A stretch of DNA of 64,000 nucleotides from a virus (IMGVR_UViG_3300045988_163275:1-64000); one strand, 5' to 3'; shown: positions 41,707 through 55,898, counted from the stretch's first letter. Numbers and translations: made by a program. The notes: generated from the sequence alone by a model not told the origin.

Positions 41707-41728
41707 ATTAGGTAAGTATTTACCTCTC
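41707..41728. repeat. TAAGTA-type palindrome
   Basis: attaggtaagtatttacctctc; between the methyltransferase stop and 41664 start. Confidence 0.5.
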
Positions 41729-43412
41729 ATTTAACGCGTTTAAAAACGTATACGCTGACAGTAATCCCGGTGTCTTCAAACATGTTAGTAAACGACTTCC
41801 CTTTGGCATAAACGTAATTATCCAGCGTCATCCAGTTTAGAATTGGCGCGTCGCCCGGCAGCACTGCTACCAGACGCCCACCGACTTTCAGATGTCCCAG
41901 CGCGGCCAACGTGTGCTCTCTGTGACGGCCAAGAGAGTAGGGCGGGTTCATGACGATTTTGTCGAACTGATAACCTGCGTTGTCCTCAGACCACTTCATG
42001 AAGTCGCAGCAGACCGTATTTGTGTACCCCTTGCCAAGCAGGATATCAGCGAAGAGAGGTGCGACTTCTATGCAGGTAACGTCTTCCGGATTGGCGTCGA
42101 TGCAGGCCAGCAGATCTCCGCGCCCGGCTTCAGGCTCCAGCAGCTTCTCACCTGGCTTCAGCTCGATGGCTCTGGCAACGTACTCCGCTATCAAACGCGG
42201 GGTAGGGTAGAACTGGTGTGATTTTGTATCCGGTATTAAGCCGGTGGCCACAATCGTATTGAGCGTATGGCCGATCTCATACGGGAACTGCCAGTGCTTG
42301 TTCTCCTGCACGCCGCCAATAAAGCTCAGTGTACGCTCCAGCTCTTCCACCTGTGACTTCTGAAGACCGGAATCAGAGAAGTACCATACGCGTTTGTCAT
42401 TGCCAGATCGCCCGTCGCGAAGCGCAGTACGCACCGGCTCGGAGATCGTCTTCTGGATTAACCCGAACTGTTTTGGTGCCCGTGTTTTGGGCGCAGTACG
42501 ACATGGAGCCGGGATTGCAGCGGGCATACTGTAAGCCAGCACCTCATTCAGCTTCCAGGCTACGTCAGGATGTATTTCAAAGTGAACGTTGCCGTTCTTA
42601 AACATCTTCACACGCATCAGGTTTCCGTCGACATTCATCCAGTCGCCGGTCTGGCAGTCATTTGCTCGATACGCAGCTGACAGCATCTCGGCCGTGCGGT
42701 TGATGGTGATAAATTCTTTGTGTGCAAAGAAATGCAACATGACGCGCAGGTCGTCTATGTAATCCTCTTTCCGGTAGTTAACGCTGACGCTGTCCCGCCA
42801 GAAATCGGAAATGCAGTCGGCGATGATCAGACGCTCGCTGAAGCCGTTCGTCTTATTGGTCTTGTGAGCAGGACTCAACGCCTTAAACAAGCCATACACG
42901 CGCTCAGAGAGATATTTGTGCCTGTCATTCAGCAAATTAAGCATCGTTGGTATGACCGTTTCTGCTTTGAACTCAGGTACACCAACGAACTCTTTAACCT
43001 TCATTTGATAGCCAGTTCTGTCAGTCTTGATCGTTTCCTGCTTGCCCTCGATAAACTGTTCACGCCACTCGTCGCGGCGGGATGCTGGCATGATCAGCAG
43101 AACGTTGGTCATATCCGTGACCTTCTTCCAGTACTCGGCCCAGATATTTTGTTTCACCCATTCCAGGTCGACTTTGTCCAGCCAGGTTCTGTTAAAGCGT
43201 GTGCGCTCGTCGTCCGGCCGGTGGTTAAGTCGCAGTAGACGGTTAATCATGTTGTGGCGTTCGTCGCCATAAACGAAGTCGTGAACCTTATTCATGAACG
43301 CAATCTCTTTCTCGCATTCGGCCACAATTTCGTGGATAACATTCATTTCCTGCCGGTAGTCAATACCGGTGTCTGGAGTGATAGAGTCAATGATGGAAAG
43401 GGCTGTATTCAT
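41727..43412 (-). CDS. DNA methyltransferase (N6-adenine/N4-cytosine type) with large N-terminal domain
   Basis: C-terminal methyltransferase motifs: motif I (LLEPEAGRGDLL) and motif IV (VMNPPYS); about 390-aa N-terminal region of unknown function; true ATG at MNTALSIIDS; promoter plus palindrome module upstream. Confidence 0.7.
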   Translation of the reverse strand: MNTALSIIDSITPDTGIDYRQEMNVIHEIVAECEKEIAFMNKVHDFVYGDERHNMINRLLRLNHRPDDERTRFNRTWLDKVDLEWVKQNIWAEYWKKVTDMTNVLLIMPASRRDEWREQFIEGKQETIKTDRTGYQMKVKEFVGVPEFKAETVIPTMLNLLNDRHKYLSERVYGLFKALSPAHKTNKTNGFSERLIIADCISDFWRDSVSVNYRKEDYIDDLRVMLHFFAHKEFITINRTAEMLSAAYRANDCQTGDWMNVDGNLMRVKMFKNGNVHFEIHPDVAWKLNEVLAYSMPAAIPAPCRTAPKTRAPKQFGLIQKTISEPVRTALRDGRSGNDKRVWYFSDSGLQKSQVEELERTLSFIGGVQENKHWQFPYEIGHTLNTIVATGLIPDTKSHQFYPTPRLIAEYVARAIELKPGEKLLEPEAGRGDLLACIDANPEDVTCIEVAPLFADILLGKGYTNTVCCDFMKWSEDNAGYQFDKIVMNPPYSLGRHREHTLAALGHLKVGGRLVAVLPGDAPILNWMTLDNYVYAKGKSFTNMFEDTGITVSVYVFKRVK

Positions 43413-43421
43413 GATTGCACC

Positions 43422-43482
43422 ATTAAACAAATTGTTTTCTTATTGGTGTTATTTTCTCAAAGCTAAAAAGGCGTAAAAGCAG
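43422..43482 (-). promoter_or_regulatory. promoter plus palindrome module
   Basis: Minus strand: GCTTTTACGCCTTTTT...GAAAATAACACCAATAAGAAAACAATTTGTTTAATGG, upstream of the methyltransferase gene. Confidence 0.55.
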
Positions 43483-44333: not shown

Positions 44334-45293
44334 ATGTTTGGTAATCTTTTCAAAACGGAAGAAACTAAGGCCCGGGAGGGCTTGGAGTCTCATTATCAGA
44401 AAGTCATGAGCTTCGTTGCTGAAAATGATCTACATGAAGCATGGGAAAAAACACGCAATATCATTTTTCGAAATATGGAAGTTAGAAGCTACATCACGCA
44501 AAACGGCGCGTTCGATCGTAACGATTTTTACTATAAGTCAGCCAAAGAGAAGCTTATTCAAAGCGCCTTCACTTCATACCTACTCATAAAAGTTTTACCT
44601 CAGTTCTATGAAATGCATCTCACCACTTTGAAAAGAAAAGAAAAAACACTCACAACACAGGATGAATACGGGGTCTGGAACTTTGACAAGTGGTTTGATG
44701 AAGTAGACTACTTTTATGACAAGGTAGTAAAAGAGAAAGTTTACGATTGGATCGAAGAGAACACAGGCCGGCTCAACAACCTTTGGTTGGCAGAGTCGGA
44801 GGACAAGAATGCCTGGGGGCGGCCAGTTTACTTTAAATTCCAGTTGCCTGAACAATTTGATCGCTGCGCAATAAATCACATTATGACGGTGGTAGACAAT
44901 ACACCAGAACCTGAATTACCTGAGTACACTTCGCTACTGACCGGGCACGAATATGAGCATTTTGTCGCTGGGGAGTTTATGAAGTATGGATCCGACACCC
45001 AAGTAACTAAGGGCAGCGGCGATCACGGTCTGGATATCCTTGTAACCTATAGAGAAGTTCGAATGGCTGTTCAGTGCAAACACTACCAGTCTAAAGTAGG
45101 CAACAAAGCTATTCAGGAAGCATTTTCCGCGAAACAGTTCTACGATTGCTCCCTCGCAATAGTAGTCAGCAACAGCGAGTTTACCCCTCACGCCAGACAA
45201 GCAGCCAAAAAACTGGACGTTTATCTGTATCACCATGAAGATATACACTTAATAATAGACGCCATTAATAATTGGCTGGATGCGCCGGAGTGA
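44334..45293 (+). CDS. Mrr-type restriction endonuclease domain protein with novel N-terminal domain
   Basis: C-terminal PD-(D/E)xK Mrr-catalytic pattern (GHEYEHFVAGEFMKYG...GSGDHGLDILVT...VQCKHYQSKVGNKAIQEAFSA...VVSNSEFTPHARQAAKK); aromatic-rich N-terminal region of about 200 aa. Confidence 0.65.
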   Translation: MFGNLFKTEETKAREGLESHYQKVMSFVAENDLHEAWEKTRNIIFRNMEVRSYITQNGAFDRNDFYYKSAKEKLIQSAFTSYLLIKVLPQFYEMHLTTLKRKEKTLTTQDEYGVWNFDKWFDEVDYFYDKVVKEKVYDWIEENTGRLNNLWLAESEDKNAWGRPVYFKFQLPEQFDRCAINHIMTVVDNTPEPELPEYTSLLTGHEYEHFVAGEFMKYGSDTQVTKGSGDHGLDILVTYREVRMAVQCKHYQSKVGNKAIQEAFSAKQFYDCSLAIVVSNSEFTPHARQAAKKLDVYLYHHEDIHLIIDAINNWLDAPE

Positions 45294-47800: not shown

Positions 47801-48394
47801 TTACGCTGCCTTTTTACGTGGTCTCTTCTTCCTGACAACATTGGCAGGGTCATAACCACCCAGCTTTTTCATCACCGCCAGCGGTATCTTGCTGATGGTG
47901 TGCCCAGCTTCCTGACAGTAGCCACGGAAGATAAGCAACATGCTGCCACCAGGGTTGATGTTCACCTCCACCAGCCCAAGTTCAACATCCGGCTCAACGA
48001 ACGCCACGCGGCCGCCAGACAAGATGACGGTTTCGTTGGCGCATTCAGCCGCACGCTCGTACCACTGCGTATCGAGGGATTGTGGTATCAGCATGACCGT
48101 CGTCACTCCACGCGCCTGCTCGCGAATGGCTGCGTCTATCCAGGGGGTGATTTTGGAGTAGGGCGGGTTAAGGAACGCCACAGTGCCAGGTTCTCCCCAA
48201 CTGCACTTGAGCGCATCACGCTCAACACCGATAAAGTTCGGCAGGAGAGCATTATCTTTGTTGCAGGCGACGTCCACATCGAACTTTACGCCTATGTAAC
48301 GTTGGATGGCGACAAACAACCACTGCGGTGTGCGCCAAAGGTCGCGAAGAGAGGCATCACGCTCTCGCTTTTTGATTTTTTCGGCTGCGATCAT
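47801..48394 (-). CDS. dam: DNA N6-adenine methyltransferase (phage Dam-type)
   Basis: NPPY motif in context FLNPPYSKITPWIDAAI; about 197 aa as in small phage Dam enzymes. Confidence 0.75.
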   Translation of the reverse strand: MIAAEKIKKRERDASLRDLWRTPQWLFVAIQRYIGVKFDVDVACNKDNALLPNFIGVERDALKCSWGEPGTVAFLNPPYSKITPWIDAAIREQARGVTTVMLIPQSLDTQWYERAAECANETVILSGGRVAFVEPDVELGLVEVNINPGGSMLLIFRGYCQEAGHTISKIPLAVMKKLGGYDPANVVRKKRPRKKAA

Positions 48395-50596: not shown

Positions 50597-51241
50597 TCAG
50601 TGGAAGGTCACTCGTCCTGTTATACGGCTCTCGATGTTTTCAGTGGCTCTTTCCAGCACACGCAATACCGATCTGGCTCGCGCCTCAACCGTGCGGCACT
50701 TTTCAGAGATAATGAAAACCTGCAAATCGCCGGTATGGGGAAGGGCGCTAATTTTCGTCAGCTCGCCACACATAAGTGCATCGATGCGAGCAACATAGAG
50801 ACGGTCAAGCGATCCTCGCTGGGGACGCGCGAGATCTTTGCTGGAAAGCTCAACGCCCGGGCGAAGACCCGCTATAGCATTAAAGTTGGAAATGGCCGCT
50901 TTGTGGCAAAACTGCTCAATGTCGAGAGCCAGCTCGATGCAGCGGTCTTCGTTGGTCTGGCCGACCAGGTCAAGCGTATAAGCCATGACATCGGCTGGCG
51001 TGCGGTCGATGACAAAACCTTCAACGCCGCGGGTGATCATCTCGATGTGTCTGGCAATCTCCATCTGAACCTGAAGACGCTCGTAAAGGGGCAAACGCTC
51101 GCCAACCTTCACCCCCAGACTGCTCATCAGCTTGCCAACACCGGCATCCACATACGGAATGCCATAGTGCGCATCGATGTACCTTGCCAGGGTTGTTTTC
51201 CCACTGCCCTGTGCGCCAGTGATTCCAATCCGGTAATCCAT
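50597..51241 (-). CDS. P-loop NTPase, putative (deoxy)nucleotide kinase
   Basis: Walker A (GITGAQGSGKTT) near the N-terminus; stop overlaps DHFR gene context. Confidence 0.45.
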   Translation of the reverse strand: MDYRIGITGAQGSGKTTLARYIDAHYGIPYVDAGVGKLMSSLGVKVGERLPLYERLQVQMEIARHIEMITRGVEGFVIDRTPADVMAYTLDLVGQTNEDRCIELALDIEQFCHKAAISNFNAIAGLRPGVELSSKDLARPQRGSLDRLYVARIDALMCGELTKISALPHTGDLQVFIISEKCRTVEARARSVLRVLERATENIESRITGRVTFH

Positions 51242-51717
51242 TACGACCTTCTGTATACGATCTGCAAAAAGCCAGGCTCATCCTCATTTGCACGTTGGGT
51301 ATAAGCCGTTTCGACTGGTACGAACCCTAAAGAACGCATCATTGGCGCCGGGAAGAACGCATCCGCGCCCGACACATCCACGCCAATATGCGACAGCCAG
51401 ATCTCTTCAACGTGTGGCATAAAGAGCGAGTAAATCTGCCCGCCACCAATCACCCAGACCGGATCTGGTAGTTTTAAAACGTCATCGATGCCAGCGGGGT
51501 AGAAACCATTGGGGATATAGCCACGAGAGCGCGTCAAAACGAGGTTATGGCGCTCTGGCAGCGGGCGTTTGAGACTTTCCATCGTCTTACGTCCCATCAC
51601 GACAGTGGCGTTTTTGGTGAGTTGTTTGAACAGTTTCAGATCGGTCGGGCAACGCCAGGGAAGTTCGTTGCCAATGCCGATTTCATAGTTGCGGCCGACA
51701 GCTGCAATCATCTTCAT
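51241..51717 (-). CDS. folA: dihydrofolate reductase
   Basis: FolA-like pattern (MIAAVGRNYEIGIGNELPWRCPTDLKLFKQLT...VVMGRKT...VWVIGGGQIY). Confidence 0.8.
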   Translation of the reverse strand: MKMIAAVGRNYEIGIGNELPWRCPTDLKLFKQLTKNATVVMGRKTMESLKRPLPERHNLVLTRSRGYIPNGFYPAGIDDVLKLPDPVWVIGGGQIYSLFMPHVEEIWLSHIGVDVSGADAFFPAPMMRSLGFVPVETAYTQRANEDEPGFLQIVYRRS

Positions 51718-52127
51718 TGGCTTACCTCATAGATGGTTGGTCGCTGGTGAGAATCTGCCAGCGCAGAACGCAGACGCGGATCATGAACCAGTGCGGCGAT
51801 AAGTAAGTCGCCTTTGTGCTCTGCCAGCGTGCGCTTGATATGGGTTTCAAAACTGACACCGCGCGGAACCAGGTGGAGCCAGTCATAATCAATGCCGAAG
51901 TCCTTCAGCCAGCGCTTGGTTGGGCCTTCGAGCGCTTCCGGACGACTACTGATAAGCACCACTTCAGCACCGGAGCGAGCAAAACCACGCAACATGCGGC
52001 TGGTGGGAAAGATGAGTTCATCACCGGCAATGAGAGCGCCTGCATCCGCATCAGGCACTGCTTTGCGATGGCTGGCTCTCGCCAGCACACCTTCAATTTC
52101 ACACAACACATACATCCCTCTGGCCAT
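51714..52127 (-). CDS. hypothetical protein, possibly HAD-like nucleotidase
   Basis: Start at MARGMYVLCEIEGVL, 2 nt after the TS stop; HAD-like first-motif position has E instead of D, so assignment is weak. Confidence 0.3.
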   Translation of the reverse strand: MARGMYVLCEIEGVLARASHRKAVPDADAGALIAGDELIFPTSRMLRGFARSGAEVVLISSRPEALEGPTKRWLKDFGIDYDWLHLVPRGVSFETHIKRTLAEHKGDLLIAALVHDPRLRSALADSHQRPTIYEVSQ

Positions 52128-52128
52128 A

Positions 52129-53244
52129 TCACACCGCCACTGGAACCTTGATCCACGGAAGAGGGCTGTAGCCGCACACCTGCACACCTTCCCATTTGAA
52201 GTCGTCCAGTTCGGCCCATTCATGCGGGAAGATGACAACCGGGTCGGACTCTTTGGGCGGCTCGCACTTCATCAGTTCCTCAACGCCTTCCATGTGGTTG
52301 TCGTAGAGATGAACGTCAAAGCCAAAATGCACGAATGCGCCAGCCATGTGGCCGGTGATCTTCGCGAGGAAGTGGGTGAGAATGCCGTAACCGGCGATGT
52401 TGAACGGCATACCAACAAAGGTATCGACACTGCGTTGAACCAGGCATGAGTTCAGAATGCGTTTCGGGATGCCCAGCTCGTCCAGCATGTTCTCAGTAAT
52501 GCCGCCATCTCTTTCCAGAAGACACAGCATCTGGGTGTAAATGGACTCGTGGCCGTGGCGGTTGTGCTGTATGCCAATGTCGGTGGCCATAGTCAGTCGG
52601 GTCTCAAAGTCCAGCTCGCGACTCCACAGTGAAAACACGAAATGGCATGGCGGCAGCTTCATATCTTCCAGTTCGCCAACATTCCAGGCATTCAGCAGGA
52701 TGCGACGATCTGTAGGGTTGGTGCGAAGCGTGTCAACGATACGCTGTAGCTGGTCAATTTCACGGGACAACACAACGCGATCTTCACTTACGCCCAGATA
52801 CCCCTCGACCTTGTACCCGCGCTCACGGAACGTGTCGATTTTGCGCAGATACTCGCTATGGCTCACGATGCGAGTGTCTTCCCACCGACGCCATTGCTTG
52901 CCATAGACCGGGCCTAAATCGCCATTTTCATCGGCCCAGGCATCCCAGATTTTGACGCCATTGTCTTTCAGGAACTGGATGTTGCCTGTTCCTTTGAGAT
53001 ACCACTCCAGCTCAACCAGTAACGGCTTCAGATTGACGGCTTTTCCGGAGATAAGTGGAACAGATCCGCCCGTCAGCATGTAGTAGGAAGGGACATATGA
53101 AACACTTTTTGTGCCGGTTCCGGTGCGATCACCCGCGTGAACGCCAGTGTTGAGCACCGTTTCAACCACTTTGGCATACGAATCACTGGCAAACTGACCG
53201 TTCGTAAAGTCTCGATTCAGTAGGATAGACAAAATCAACCTCAC
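52129..53244 (-). CDS. thyA: thymidylate synthase (ThyA family) with two insertions
   Basis: DRTGTGT, WADENGDLGPVYGKQWR, catalytic LPPCH, QRSVD, MPFNIAGY all present; two extra segments (about 38 and 50 aa) relative to E. coli ThyA; GTG/TTG start near 53244. Confidence 0.8.
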   Translation of the reverse strand: MRLILSILLNRDFTNGQFASDSYAKVVETVLNTGVHAGDRTGTGTKSVSYVPSYYMLTGGSVPLISGKAVNLKPLLVELEWYLKGTGNIQFLKDNGVKIWDAWADENGDLGPVYGKQWRRWEDTRIVSHSEYLRKIDTFRERGYKVEGYLGVSEDRVVLSREIDQLQRIVDTLRTNPTDRRILLNAWNVGELEDMKLPPCHFVFSLWSRELDFETRLTMATDIGIQHNRHGHESIYTQMLCLLERDGGITENMLDELGIPKRILNSCLVQRSVDTFVGMPFNIAGYGILTHFLAKITGHMAGAFVHFGFDVHLYDNHMEGVEELMKCEPPKESDPVVIFPHEWAELDDFKWEGVQVCGYSPLPWIKVPVAV

Positions 53245-53247
53245 ACA

Positions 53248-53270
53248 AGATAAGTAAGTACATACCTATT
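53248..53270. repeat. TAAGTA-type palindrome
   Basis: agataagtaagtacatacctatt; immediately upstream of the thyA start. Confidence 0.5.
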
Positions 53271-53319
53271 ATTTTATACAAGTTTATCTGTCAGAAGTGT
53301 GTAAGGCTAGGAGGGGAGT

Positions 53320-53347
53320 AAAAAAAATGGTGGCTCTTCGGCCACCA
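53320..53347 (-). terminator. intrinsic terminator between MazG-like gene and thyA
   Basis: Minus strand TGGTGGCCGAAGAGCCACCA followed by TTTTTTTT. Confidence 0.7.
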
Positions 53348-53402
53348 TTGCAATGAGCAATTAAGAACTTGGACAATAAAACACGCCAAGGCAATATATA
53401 AT

Positions 53403-53419
53403 GATAAGTACTCACTTAC
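53403..53419. repeat. TAAGTA-type palindrome
   Basis: gataagtactcacttac; at the MazG-like stop, before the terminator. Confidence 0.45.
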
Positions 53420-54290
53420 AATTATTTTTTACCATCTCGTAAAGAGATGAGGACTTCGCCTTCTCAACAAAGCAAGTCAGATCCACATCGCTGTAGGTTG
53501 GGGATTTGAGGATCTTGCCATCAGAAACTCTGAAGCCGATCATCATGTCAGTCCCTTCAGCATGGCGGAACCCCAGATCTTCCTTATCGTATTTGCAATT
53601 CTCTACCGCCACACGACGCTCTTCGGCGTCAGCCGGCCACAGCTTGGTCATGTTGGAACGGTGGATTTCTGCCACCAGCTCAACAATATCGATTCCGAGA
53701 AAATCAGCCAGACGGTAGGTCATCATGCAGGCAACGTAGATTTTGTTCATCACGCGGCGCAGCTCCTGCACCAATTCGGAATCGCTTATCGGCTTCGCTT
53801 CAAGTTTGTCAGCCAGCGCATTCAGCATTAATGCAGCTTCTTTTGCTTCTTCAAACGGGATAGCCATATCGTCAAAGACCGTGTTGCCCGGAACCATGAT
53901 GGTGTGGATGAAGCGATCAACACTCTGCTCTTGGGTGTAGTAACTCATGCCCGTCGAGATGCCGCCTTTGATGGCCACCATTGTGCCGACGCCCACGTAA
54001 AGGAAGTCAGCCATCGCGTCCAGCAGTGCCGTCATATCCCCATTTTTGGCTGCCGGGATGCCCTCGGTAACTGCTTCTTCGTGGATCAGCTTGGCACGCA
54101 GACGCAGTAATGCCGGATCTGGAATGGCACGGCGTGGGTGCTGAAACAGTGTGTGGAACTGGTCAACCATCAGGTAGATGCTTTCCGTTGTCTTGCCGAA
54201 ACCGGGATTCAACTCGTAAGGCTCTGGTTTAAACCCCACGAGTTTGTCTGCGGCAAGTTTCAGATGATCGGTCAGTTTCGTAAATTTCAT
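53412..54290 (-). CDS. hypothetical protein, possibly MazG-like NTP pyrophosphohydrolase
   Basis: All-alpha segments with acidic motifs (RAKLIHEEAVTE; EAKEAALMLNALADKLE) reminiscent of MazG/HisE-type enzymes; weak. Confidence 0.3.
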   Translation of the reverse strand: MKFTKLTDHLKLAADKLVGFKPEPYELNPGFGKTTESIYLMVDQFHTLFQHPRRAIPDPALLRLRAKLIHEEAVTEGIPAAKNGDMTALLDAMADFLYVGVGTMVAIKGGISTGMSYYTQEQSVDRFIHTIMVPGNTVFDDMAIPFEEAKEAALMLNALADKLEAKPISDSELVQELRRVMNKIYVACMMTYRLADFLGIDIVELVAEIHRSNMTKLWPADAEERRVAVENCKYDKEDLGFRHAEGTDMMIGFRVSDGKILKSPTYSDVDLTCFVEKAKSSSLYEMVKNNCK

Positions 54291-54496
54291 GTTTTCTTTC
54301 CTTTAGACTTCTCTTGATACGCCAATTTTGACCCAGCAGCGCCAGGCCACAAAGTGGTTAAACTCGGCTTAGAGGTATTCGAACTGGCTCAGGCCAGTGC
54401 AATCGACAGCGAACTTTGTCAGCGCTTCATGCAACTGGCAGCGGCTCGGTGGGCGTTACGTTTTACGATGCTTATTATGTGTAGCCCAATTAAAAA

Positions 54497-54555: not shown

Positions 54556-55125
54556 TTATAAAATTCCAGCAAGAACATCGCGAACCTGACGGAATTGATC
54601 AGTTTGCATACCGGTGTAAATCGATGCGACAGCGTCCGCAAGGTGCTCGTTTTTATTCACCAGCACTTCCTTGCCCGATTGCTTCCGGCGCAACCACGGG
54701 GCGTTTGGCTGCTTCTGCGTAGCCCACTGAATGATCTCTTCTTTCGACGTAGTCAGCTTATTCCCGACATAGTACTTAATCTCGTTTGGCGTGACCTGTA
54801 TCAGTGGCTTATCCACACACGCCAGTACGCCAAGACAACCACCATAAGAAACCATCGCTCTAGCAGATTGACTGCCTACTGGCAGTTCACAGAACACTAA
54901 ATGAACTTGGTCAATCAGTGGCTTAATACCACGCCAAATCTCGTTCAACCGCCGCATATCGTCACTGTTAACGCGAACTTGCTTTTTCGTATCACCAGCT
55001 TTCGTCTCAATGAGATGCAACTTATTGACCTGCAATGCACCTGAATCCAGTTCTATTTCTCCGATGGCAACGCCAAAATTTGACAGAGATGGATCGAGAC
55101 CTGCAACTTTGATTACTTTTTTCAC
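54556..55125 (-). CDS. RuvC-like Holliday junction resolvase
   Basis: N-terminal GLDPSLSNFGVAIGE (first catalytic Asp), FCELP, C-terminal EHLADAVASIY, consistent with the RuvC/RNase H-like fold. Confidence 0.6.
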   Translation of the reverse strand: MKKVIKVAGLDPSLSNFGVAIGEIELDSGALQVNKLHLIETKAGDTKKQVRVNSDDMRRLNEIWRGIKPLIDQVHLVFCELPVGSQSARAMVSYGGCLGVLACVDKPLIQVTPNEIKYYVGNKLTTSKEEIIQWATQKQPNAPWLRRKQSGKEVLVNKNEHLADAVASIYTGMQTDQFRQVRDVLAGIL

Positions 55126-55898
55126 TCTGTGACCTCCATTTCAACAAAATGCGGTAGATTGTGCTCTTCGATAAATCGCTTACGCGCTAAGTAAGCCTCC
55201 AATTCATCGTGACATTGATACAAGAAGACACACTCTCCTTTCCACACAACTCTAGCAACCCAAACCTTGTTCGTTTTGCAGTAATGAACGCCAGTAAACT
55301 TCGACGTACTACCATCCACTTTCCCTTGTTTATTTGCACTCTGGACGTGCTTGTCAGCCCACCTCAGATTCCCTGGTTCATATCCCTTGCTGGAGTCGAT
55401 GCGATCAAGCGTAACCCCCTCTACAACTCTCTCCGTATCGGAAAACGGATAGCCCTCAAGTACGGAAACATACCTGTAAAAATTATCAAAATCCTCGAAC
55501 CCGGTGGCGTAAGATATTCCCCGTCCACCATACTTTTCGTATCTTGCCCGATTTGGATTGTTACAACGCGCCTTCATACTTGCCCAAGTCCAGTACAGAG
55601 GGTTTTCCATGACTTTATATTCTGCGTTCTGGCGATATATCCCGGCACATTTATTTGAGCAGGTCTTCTGTCTGACTCGCTTCGCGTTCTCAAGGTTTGC
55701 AGAGAATCGATGACCGCAGATAAAGCATTCAAGCTCAACAATTCGGCGCTTACGCTCCCTTGAATCAAATATTGGCTCCAACTCTCTAATGAAATTTCCG
55801 TCGAAATCGTCGGGATTGATAGGTTTCGCATCTTTTCTTAATTTTGTCGCTCTTCCTCTCACTTTTGGTCTCCTTACCACGTAGCCCAGGTTGGGCAT
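55122..55898 (-). CDS. HNH homing endonuclease with AP2 DNA-binding domain
   Basis: HNH_3-like motif (LDRIDSSKGYEPGNLRWADKHVQSANK) plus AP2-like C-terminus (KFTGVHYCKTNKVWVARVVWKGECVFLYQCHDELEAYLARKRF). Confidence 0.7.
   Translation of the reverse strand: MPNLGYVVRRPKVRGRATKLRKDAKPINPDDFDGNFIRELEPIFDSRERKRRIVELECFICGHRFSANLENAKRVRQKTCSNKCAGIYRQNAEYKVMENPLYWTWASMKARCNNPNRARYEKYGGRGISYATGFEDFDNFYRYVSVLEGYPFSDTERVVEGVTLDRIDSSKGYEPGNLRWADKHVQSANKQGKVDGSTSKFTGVHYCKTNKVWVARVVWKGECVFLYQCHDELEAYLARKRFIEEHNLPHFVEMEVTE

Follow-up and report, generated by a model that had tools for sequence, protein, structure and literature searches.

The subject of this analysis is a block of nucleotide-metabolism genes in a viral DNA of 64,000 nucleotides (IMGVR_UViG_3300045988_163275:1-64000), the whole of which is referred to as the window. 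The block spans positions 50597-54290 (3.7 kb) and consists of five co-directional open reading frames (ORFs) on the minus strand, in agreement with a preliminary description that had raised the question whether these genes serve the synthesis of ordinary deoxythymidine monophosphate (dTMP) or a modification of thymidine. The block shows 98.1% identity to Salmonella phage SSU5, and over a surrounding stretch of 12 kb many plasmids of ~106 kb from Escherichia coli and E. fergusonii reach 99.3-99.6% identity. The surrounding stretch also has weaker matches in plasmids of Klebsiella, Escherichia, Enterobacter, Yersinia, Salmonella, and other genera, at least 786 records in all. Because of the identity to SSU5 and to the E. 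coli plasmids, the window is assigned to a phage-plasmid of the SSU5 type with E. coli as its host.

The gene products were assigned to families by profile matches in Pfam, PHROGs, and NCBIfam. In the direction of transcription, the block starts with a MazG/PRA-PH-like all-alpha nucleoside triphosphate pyrophosphohydrolase of 292 aa (53412-54290). A strong intrinsic-terminator-like hairpin on the same strand (53316-53349, also delimited as 53326-53349), found by a consensus scan and by direct reading of the sequence, lies between this gene and the next and is composed of a 9-bp stem (AATGGTGGC-loop-GCCACCATT) followed by a T7 run. It is succeeded by the genes for a long phage-type thymidylate synthase (TS) of the ThyA family (367 aa, 52129-53232), a HAD/PNKP-phosphatase-like protein (137 aa, 51714-52127, ATG at 52127), a dihydrofolate reductase (DHFR) of the DfrA51 type (158 aa, 51241-51717), and a P-loop protein with a (deoxy)nucleoside/nucleotide kinase fold (214 aa, 50597-51241). 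The junctions among these last four genes are tight, with a 1-nt spacer between the synthase and HAD-like genes, a 4-nt overlap between the HAD-like and DHFR genes, and a 1-nt overlap between the DHFR and kinase genes; the four genes are translationally coupled. The putative terminator suggests that they are transcribed as a unit of their own or under attenuation.

Related elements show a similar arrangement. SSU5-like relatives in Xenorhabdus and Photobacterium, whose synthases are 52-55% identical to that of the window, share the order NrdA-NrdB-PRA_PH-TS-HAD-DHFR-AAA_28-hypothetical-RNase_T exonuclease, a more distant contig of 127 kb retains SbcC...NrdA-NrdB-PRA_PH-TS, and on an unrelated phage contig the genes next to that of a distant long-form synthase encode a Pfam thymidylate kinase and a ribonucleotide reductase subunit. 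Such neighborhoods are the context expected for a de novo supply of deoxythymidine triphosphate (dTTP). Compared with SSU5 (L001 15821-19297), ~3.5 kb comprising almost all of nrdB and nrdA are cleanly deleted from the window, with the junction at 54412-54434, where short remnants of both nrd gene ends remain. Annotations of nrd genes are also missing in the closest E. coli plasmids, but are kept in one Salmonella plasmid and in Escherichia phage Cyrano (OV696614). The element therefore carries its dTMP module without a ribonucleotide reductase of its own.

The synthase matches the Pfam family Thymidylat_synt (PF00303) with an E-value of 7.8e-78 (261.7 bits, cutoff 24.3) and the NCBIfam thyA equivalog TIGR03284 with 217.3 bits (cutoff 108.35). 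Its probable start is the TTG codon at 53232, which is preceded by a GAGG Shine-Dalgarno sequence and is also the annotated start in SSU5; residue numbers given here refer to the 371-aa mechanical ORF beginning at GTG 53244. The protein aligns with E. coli ThyA in three blocks (residues 22-123, 161-208, and 265-371), with 117 identities over ~261 aligned positions of the core (~45%). The model predicted by AF2 has a mean predicted local distance difference test score (pLDDT) of 94.4, and Foldseek places it on the E. coli enzyme with a TMt of 0.94. Residues C200-H201, R40, R180/R181, R271-S272, D274, N282, H312, Y314, E78, and Y114 correspond to Cys146-His147, Arg21, Arg126/127, Arg166-Ser167, Asp169, Asn177, His207, Tyr209, Glu58, and Tyr94 of the E. 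coli protein and are invariant or nearly so among the homologues; L197, C200, and N282 are invariant in all 114 of them. The family models and the residue alignment thus bear out the claim that this is a ThyA-family enzyme with all catalytic motifs. In comparison with bacterial class-1 TS (EC 2.1.1.45), as represented by E. coli ThyA, the fold is the same and no residue of catalysis, substrate binding, or folate sealing is missing, whereas the window protein is ~100 residues longer, owing to an N-terminal extension of ~19 aa and two structured insertions, and shows a few clade-specific substitutions, e.g. FGFD for TGGD before His207. In the Cyrano genome, the orthologue (L002 9380-10483) is labelled 'ThyX Thymidylate synthase', yet belongs to the ThyA (PF00303) family, and the P-loop gene carries the label 'ABC transporter ATP-binding protein'; these two labels look like mis-annotations.

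The residues that set synthases apart from hydroxymethylases bear on whether such a protein produces dTMP. The rival explanation, to which the preliminary description had also pointed, sees in it a hydroxymethylase of deoxyuridine monophosphate (dUMP) that would cooperate with the pyrophosphohydrolase as dTTPase/dUTPase, the HAD-like protein as dTMPase, and the P-loop protein as a kinase of hmdUMP or of 5-hydroxymethyldeoxyuridine (5-hmdU) in DNA, so that thymine is replaced by 5-hmdU or hypermodified thymidine. It takes its appeal from a superficial parallel to the enzyme suite of hmU phages, i.e. dUMP hydroxymethylase, dTTPase, dTMPase, and deoxynucleoside monophosphate (dNMP) kinase (PMC8989533). 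According to the ternary complex of the T4 hydroxymethylase of deoxycytidine monophosphate (dCMP), however, hydroxymethylases carry Asp or Glu three positions before the catalytic cysteine (Cys-3), where synthases have Leu143, and Ser/Thr at the position of Val93; moreover, they have lost Trp83, lack the tail with which the C-terminus of synthases seals the folate site, and release tetrahydrofolate (THF) instead of the dihydrofolate (DHF) released by synthases (PMC6400193).

The window synthase was aligned with E. coli ThyA and three experimentally known hydroxymethylases, T4 gp42, the dUMP hydroxymethylase SPO1 gp29, and the dU hydroxymethyltransferase gp51 of the hypermodifying phage PaMx11. 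These share with it the superfamily, the catalytic cysteine, the Arg-Ser-x-Asp motif, and the equivalent of Glu58. At Cys-3, however, the window synthase has L197 (equivalent to E. coli Leu143) and all three hydroxymethylases have Asp (compare PMC6400193); the catalytic cysteine is followed by H201, as in the Cys146-His147 pair, and by Asn or Thr in the hydroxymethylases. W103 matches Trp83, V113-Y114 match Val93-Tyr94, D274 matches Asp169, and N282 matches Asn177. The C-terminus IKVPVAV resembles IKAPVAI of E. coli, whereas the hydroxymethylases lack both Trp83 and the PVAV tail: T4 gp42 ends earlier than ThyA, and SPO1 gp29 and PaMx11 gp51 continue in long unrelated C-terminal extensions. 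Thus, the alignment at the hydride-transfer residues, which had been proposed as a check, returns the synthase state at every discriminating position compared, and the hydroxymethylase signature of Asp at Cys-3, Ser/Thr at Val93, and loss of the tail was not found in this protein. Overall identity to the three hydroxymethylases is 21-26%, compared with the ~45% to E. coli ThyA.

Searches for partners of such a pathway give the same picture. Twelve proteins of hydroxymethylpyrimidine pathways, among them the three hydroxymethylases, 5-HMUDK, PUGT, HD nucleotidase, dCMP deaminase, T4 dCTPase, and SPO1 gp22.1, were compared by tblastn with the whole window and hit only the ThyA locus; PaMx11 gp49 and gp50 gave chance-level matches only, and PaMx11 gp46, as a query for aGPT-PPlase/PUGT, had no match at E up to 1 in tblastn against the 64-kb window, no profile search having been run. 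A second synthase homologue was not found in the window either, and neither the insertions of the synthase nor DNA modification in elements of the SSU5 type could be traced in the literature searched. Hundreds of sequenced isolates, moreover, are inferred to maintain the element by stable plasmid replication, which also speaks against a genome with replaced thymine. With the hydroxymethylase signature, further pathway genes in the window, and, as outlined below, a kinase and a phosphatase of the appropriate type all failing to appear, the hypermodification pathway is considered highly improbable.

Another rival explanation concerns cytosine. The enzyme could be a dCMP methyltransferase yielding 5-methyl-dCMP, or a dCMP hydroxymethylase, in which case the phage DNA would contain modified cytosine of relevance to the Mrr-type nuclease encoded nearby. 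A dCMP methylase of the TS family would use hydride transfer as well, so that an adjacent DHFR is compatible with this idea. Against it stands the substrate choice at residue 177, where Asn specifies dUMP and Asp specifies dCMP, and the presence of both His147 and Asn177 marks unmodified-type, dUMP-specific enzymes (PMC8670742). The window synthase carries this unmodified-type pair as His201 and Asn282, each invariant or nearly so in the 114 homologues, and a cytosine substrate is considered highly improbable, even more so than the hydroxymethylated product discussed above.

The DHFR encoded downstream matches PF00186 (DHFR_1) with an E-value of 3.8e-35 and the NCBIfam model of DfrA51 (NF047324) over its entire length (residues 1-158 of 158) with 357.6 bits (cutoff 322). 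It occupies the same genomic position as the DHFR of SSU5 (AFL47010.1), with which it shares 156 of 158 residues, the two substitutions being K82R and S116P relative to SSU5. Expression of the SSU5 protein (AFL47010) in E. coli raised the minimal inhibitory concentration (MIC) of trimethoprim to 256-512 mg/L, the purified protein binds trimethoprim weakly, and DfrA51 has recently been named as a trimethoprim-resistance determinant of phage-plasmids (PMC12217456). Because a nearly identical protein raised the MIC in E. coli (PMC12217456), the window gene is taken to encode a working DHFR. The DHFR of the SSU5-like plasmid of E. coli O104:H4 (AFS59762), in turn, was reported in an earlier study to confer no trimethoprim resistance (PMC7725336); either the two sets of results conflict or they reflect differences between alleles. 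Since DHF is the folate product of synthases but not of hydroxymethylases, which release THF, a coupled functional DHFR fits a genuine TS. The earlier argument from the adjacent DHFR is thereby strengthened, as it is now joined by the synthase-specific residues, a functional DfrA51, and the THF release by hydroxymethylases; a translationally linked DHFR would be out of place beside an enzyme that makes no DHF (PMC6400193).

The remaining members of the block are more distantly related to characterized proteins. The pyrophosphohydrolase, 98% identical to SSU5_080, matches PRA-PH (PF01503) with 37.4 bits (cutoff 21.3, E 3.6e-9) and the nucleotide pyrophosphohydrolase family phrog_671 with an E-value of 8e-46. 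Orthologues show no variation in its EExxE, DAxxD, and HxSNMSKL motifs (E71-E72-x-x-x-E76, D91/D95, and H210/N213/K216), and the family match together with the acidic motif places it in the all-alpha MazG/HisE superfamily, as had been presumed. The best solved relative is DR2231 of Deinococcus, a MazG-like dUTP pyrophosphohydrolase aligned in two halves (E 0.001), which is described as acting exclusively on dUTP in a title cited in PMC10014863. Both proteins have the all-alpha MazG/HisE fold and the EExxE and H-x-x-N-x-S-K motifs; the window protein differs in being twice as long, with an internal insertion of ~70 aa and a C-terminal extension, and in having DAxxD for ExxD. Conversion of dUTP to dUMP and pyrophosphate (PPi) would, on this likeness, be a reasonable putative role.

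The HAD-like ORF belongs to phrog_5387 (E 5e-87) and resembles HAD_PNKP weakly (17.4 bits, E 0.005, below the Pfam cutoff of 27.6). In the alignment to the phosphatase module of Pnkp1 (4xrp), VLCEIEGVL lies opposite VICDLDGTL. In the window, SSU5, and Cyrano, motif I thus reads CEIEGV (Glu-x-Glu) instead of DxDGT; the orthologue in Xenorhabdus has CTIDGV (Thr-x-Asp), and only that in Photobacterium has a canonical motif (CDLDGG). Hence, the ORF and a weak HAD/PNKP likeness stand as first described, but the catalytic DxD motif is lost, and the protein is probably not an active phosphatase, to judge from this motif; it likely lacks catalytic activity or serves another purpose. Because motif I is degenerate in the lineage of the window and in Xenorhabdus, a conserved dTMPase role, as the hypermodification pathway would demand, is unlikely. 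Given that the gene is conserved and coupled to the synthase gene despite the loss of the motif, its product may be a pseudoenzyme. In a distant relative (L006), a 135-aa ORF downstream of the synthase was considered as an orthologue and not counted, as the identity is 25% with many gaps.

The P-loop protein matches AAA_28 (E 1.4e-9), one of 11 P-loop families matched in Pfam, as well as the thymidylate kinase family phrog_2107 (E 7e-10), but not the Pfam family Thymidylate_kin. Conserved motifs comprise Walker A (GxxGxGKT), DRTP, and LRPG. Its AF2 model (pLDDT 85.8) aligns in Foldseek with deoxyadenosine kinase at TM 0.63-0.65 and with deoxynucleoside kinase (dNK) and thymidylate kinase (TMPK) at TM 0.52-0.59 (E ~1e-4). 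The kinase announced in the preliminary description is therefore retained as a small-molecule nucleoside/nucleotide kinase-like fold, and as a candidate dNMP (dTMP) kinase. The notion of a hypermodification kinase is not supported, since the protein matches neither of the Pfam 5-hmdU DNA kinase (HMUDK) families PF18748 and PF18723, to which the positive controls PaMx11 gp49 and gp50 do match.

Taken together, the block is interpreted, with a probability of about 90%, as a pyrimidine-deoxynucleotide module that makes ordinary dTMP/dTTP and not modified thymidine. In the proposed sequence of reactions, the MazG-family enzyme would cleave dUTP into dUMP and PPi, its family being established and its substrate presumed. 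The long-form ThyA, as the conservation of its residues indicates, would then convert dUMP and 5,10-methylene-THF by hydride transfer into dTMP and DHF, the latter would be reduced to THF by DfrA51, and the P-loop protein would probably phosphorylate dTMP or another dNMP. Several points weigh against this interpretation. The substrates of the synthase, the MazG-like protein, and the kinase are inferred; the pyrophosphohydrolase matches DR2231 weakly (E 0.001) and also resembles gp62 of the 5-hmdU-modifying phage PaMx11 (E 1e-4), a weak similarity that favors the hydroxymethylase pathway. The structural matches of the kinase are moderate (TM up to 0.65, E ~1e-4), and the scheme does not account for the two synthase insertions. 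The published resistance results on SSU5-type DHFRs conflict, a disagreement about drug resistance that leaves the DHFR activity untouched. Finally, the window screened covers ~64 of the ~106 kb of the element.

The two insertions distinguish the synthase from all solved relatives. Defined as gaps in the alignment with E. coli ThyA, insertion 1 comprises residues ~124-160 (~37 aa, net +34; 52765-52875, minus strand) and insertion 2 residues ~209-264 (~56 aa, net ~+50; 52453-52620, minus strand), close to the two extra segments of about 38 and 50 aa noted before. In sequence, both are set apart from the catalytic motifs. Insertion 1 is located in the loop after QWRxW, where the 8-residue insert of eukaryotic enzymes sits, and is predicted to fold into beta-strands and two short helices; insertion 2 extends the hairpin between two central beta-strands and is predicted to form a three-helix module, both with pLDDT >90. 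No solved TS covers them in Foldseek (TMq 0.67-0.70 with TMt 0.94), in contrast to BFVD models of jumbo-phage synthases, which reach a TMq of 0.78-0.85 (e.g. 0.84 for 201phi2-1 and 0.78 for Yoloswag). SPN3US-like and Erwinia jumbo phages encode homologues whose tblastn alignment spans 94-99% of the query in a single piece, at 37-41% identity. These jumbo-phage enzymes (SPN3US-like, Erwinia, 201phi2-1, Yoloswag) are likewise long-form ThyA proteins, with both insertion sites occupied, but their sequences are divergent, some measure 457-471 aa, and they belong to lytic jumbo phages instead of a plasmid-prophage operon. A search with insertion 2 alone against 1.8 billion representative proteins revealed no homologue outside TS; its only matches were one TS fragment and one TPR/STAND protein, the latter judged spurious, as its score adds up over many copies of one weak motif (SIYTQ..L.E).

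Among the 114 homologues, the lengths of the two insertions are correlated (r=0.85), with both present in 56 and neither in 46, and insertion 1 is conserved throughout the long-form clade. Ratios of nonsynonymous to synonymous differences (pN/pS) against Cyrano are 0.066 for insertion 1, 0.15 for insertion 2, and 0.087 for the core; these are raw values, as saturation of the synonymous sites precludes a Jukes-Cantor correction. Both insertions are under purifying selection comparable to that on the core. They define a long ThyA clade of the phage type, to which jumbo-phage enzymes also belong, and decorate it as conserved, folded segments specific to this lineage.

A third explanation accepts canonical catalysis and lets the insertions add a function, either as a docking surface for a dTMP-forming complex with DHFR, kinase, and HAD-like protein or in a regulatory or anti-defense role. 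Their co-occurrence, confident predicted folding, and purifying selection speak for it, as do the sharing with jumbo-phage enzymes beyond the coverage of solved synthases and the retention of a degenerate HAD-like ORF coupled translationally to the synthase gene. Interaction with the neighboring products is hypothetical, however; TS proteins often carry surface insertions in these loops, such insertions may be neutral elaborations of the structure, and the distant relative L006 has a long-form synthase without an adjacent DHFR or kinase. An added function is therefore rated as rather unlikely. Similarly doubtful is its more specific form, in which the insertions would constitute an accessory ThyA module of a phage lineage (SSU5-type elements and several jumbo-phage groups) devoted to the assembly of a dTMP 'metabolon' or to shielding from a host factor; a protein-docking role in particular is speculation.

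Much of the block is already known, the genes being annotated in SSU5 and hundreds of plasmids and the DHFR being published; the only features without a previous description are the insertions in the long-form synthase and the HAD-like partner with its degenerate motif. As a structural curiosity, the clade of long-form ThyA proteins is a modest one. The context shows the clinically flagged dfrA51 to be a housekeeping gene that serves a phage thymidylate synthase, rather than a resistance cassette captured recently. SSU5-type phage-plasmids are expected to carry ordinary thymine, and therefore no evasion or triggering of modification-dependent nucleases via thymidine chemistry is predicted.

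This last point bears on the Mrr-type nuclease mentioned above. The ORF is real: positions 44334-45293 of the plus strand, opposite to the neighboring genes, encode a protein of 319 aa whose C-terminal part matches the Mrr_cat nuclease domain. The suggested link between this nuclease and thymidine modification has no basis here because the hypermodification pathway is not supported. The window encodes a phage Dam-type N6-adenine methyltransferase (47801-48394, minus strand) and a DUF4942 protein annotated as DNA methyltransferase in SSU5 (41727-43430, minus strand), and adenine methylation is more likely than thymidine chemistry to matter for an Mrr-type enzyme.

A further segment of the window, of ~850 bp (55009-55857), is missing from SSU5 and Cyrano. 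It holds an ORF of 258 aa (55122-55898, minus strand) located between a RuvC-like gene and the SSU5_076 homologue and overlapping both. This ORF had no Pfam match even at E up to 5. By eye, it contains HNH-like (LDRIDSSKGYEPGNLRWA) and AP2-like (FTGVHY..KVWVARV) motifs, in agreement with the HNH/AP2 annotation of one plasmid, which suggests a putative homing endonuclease.

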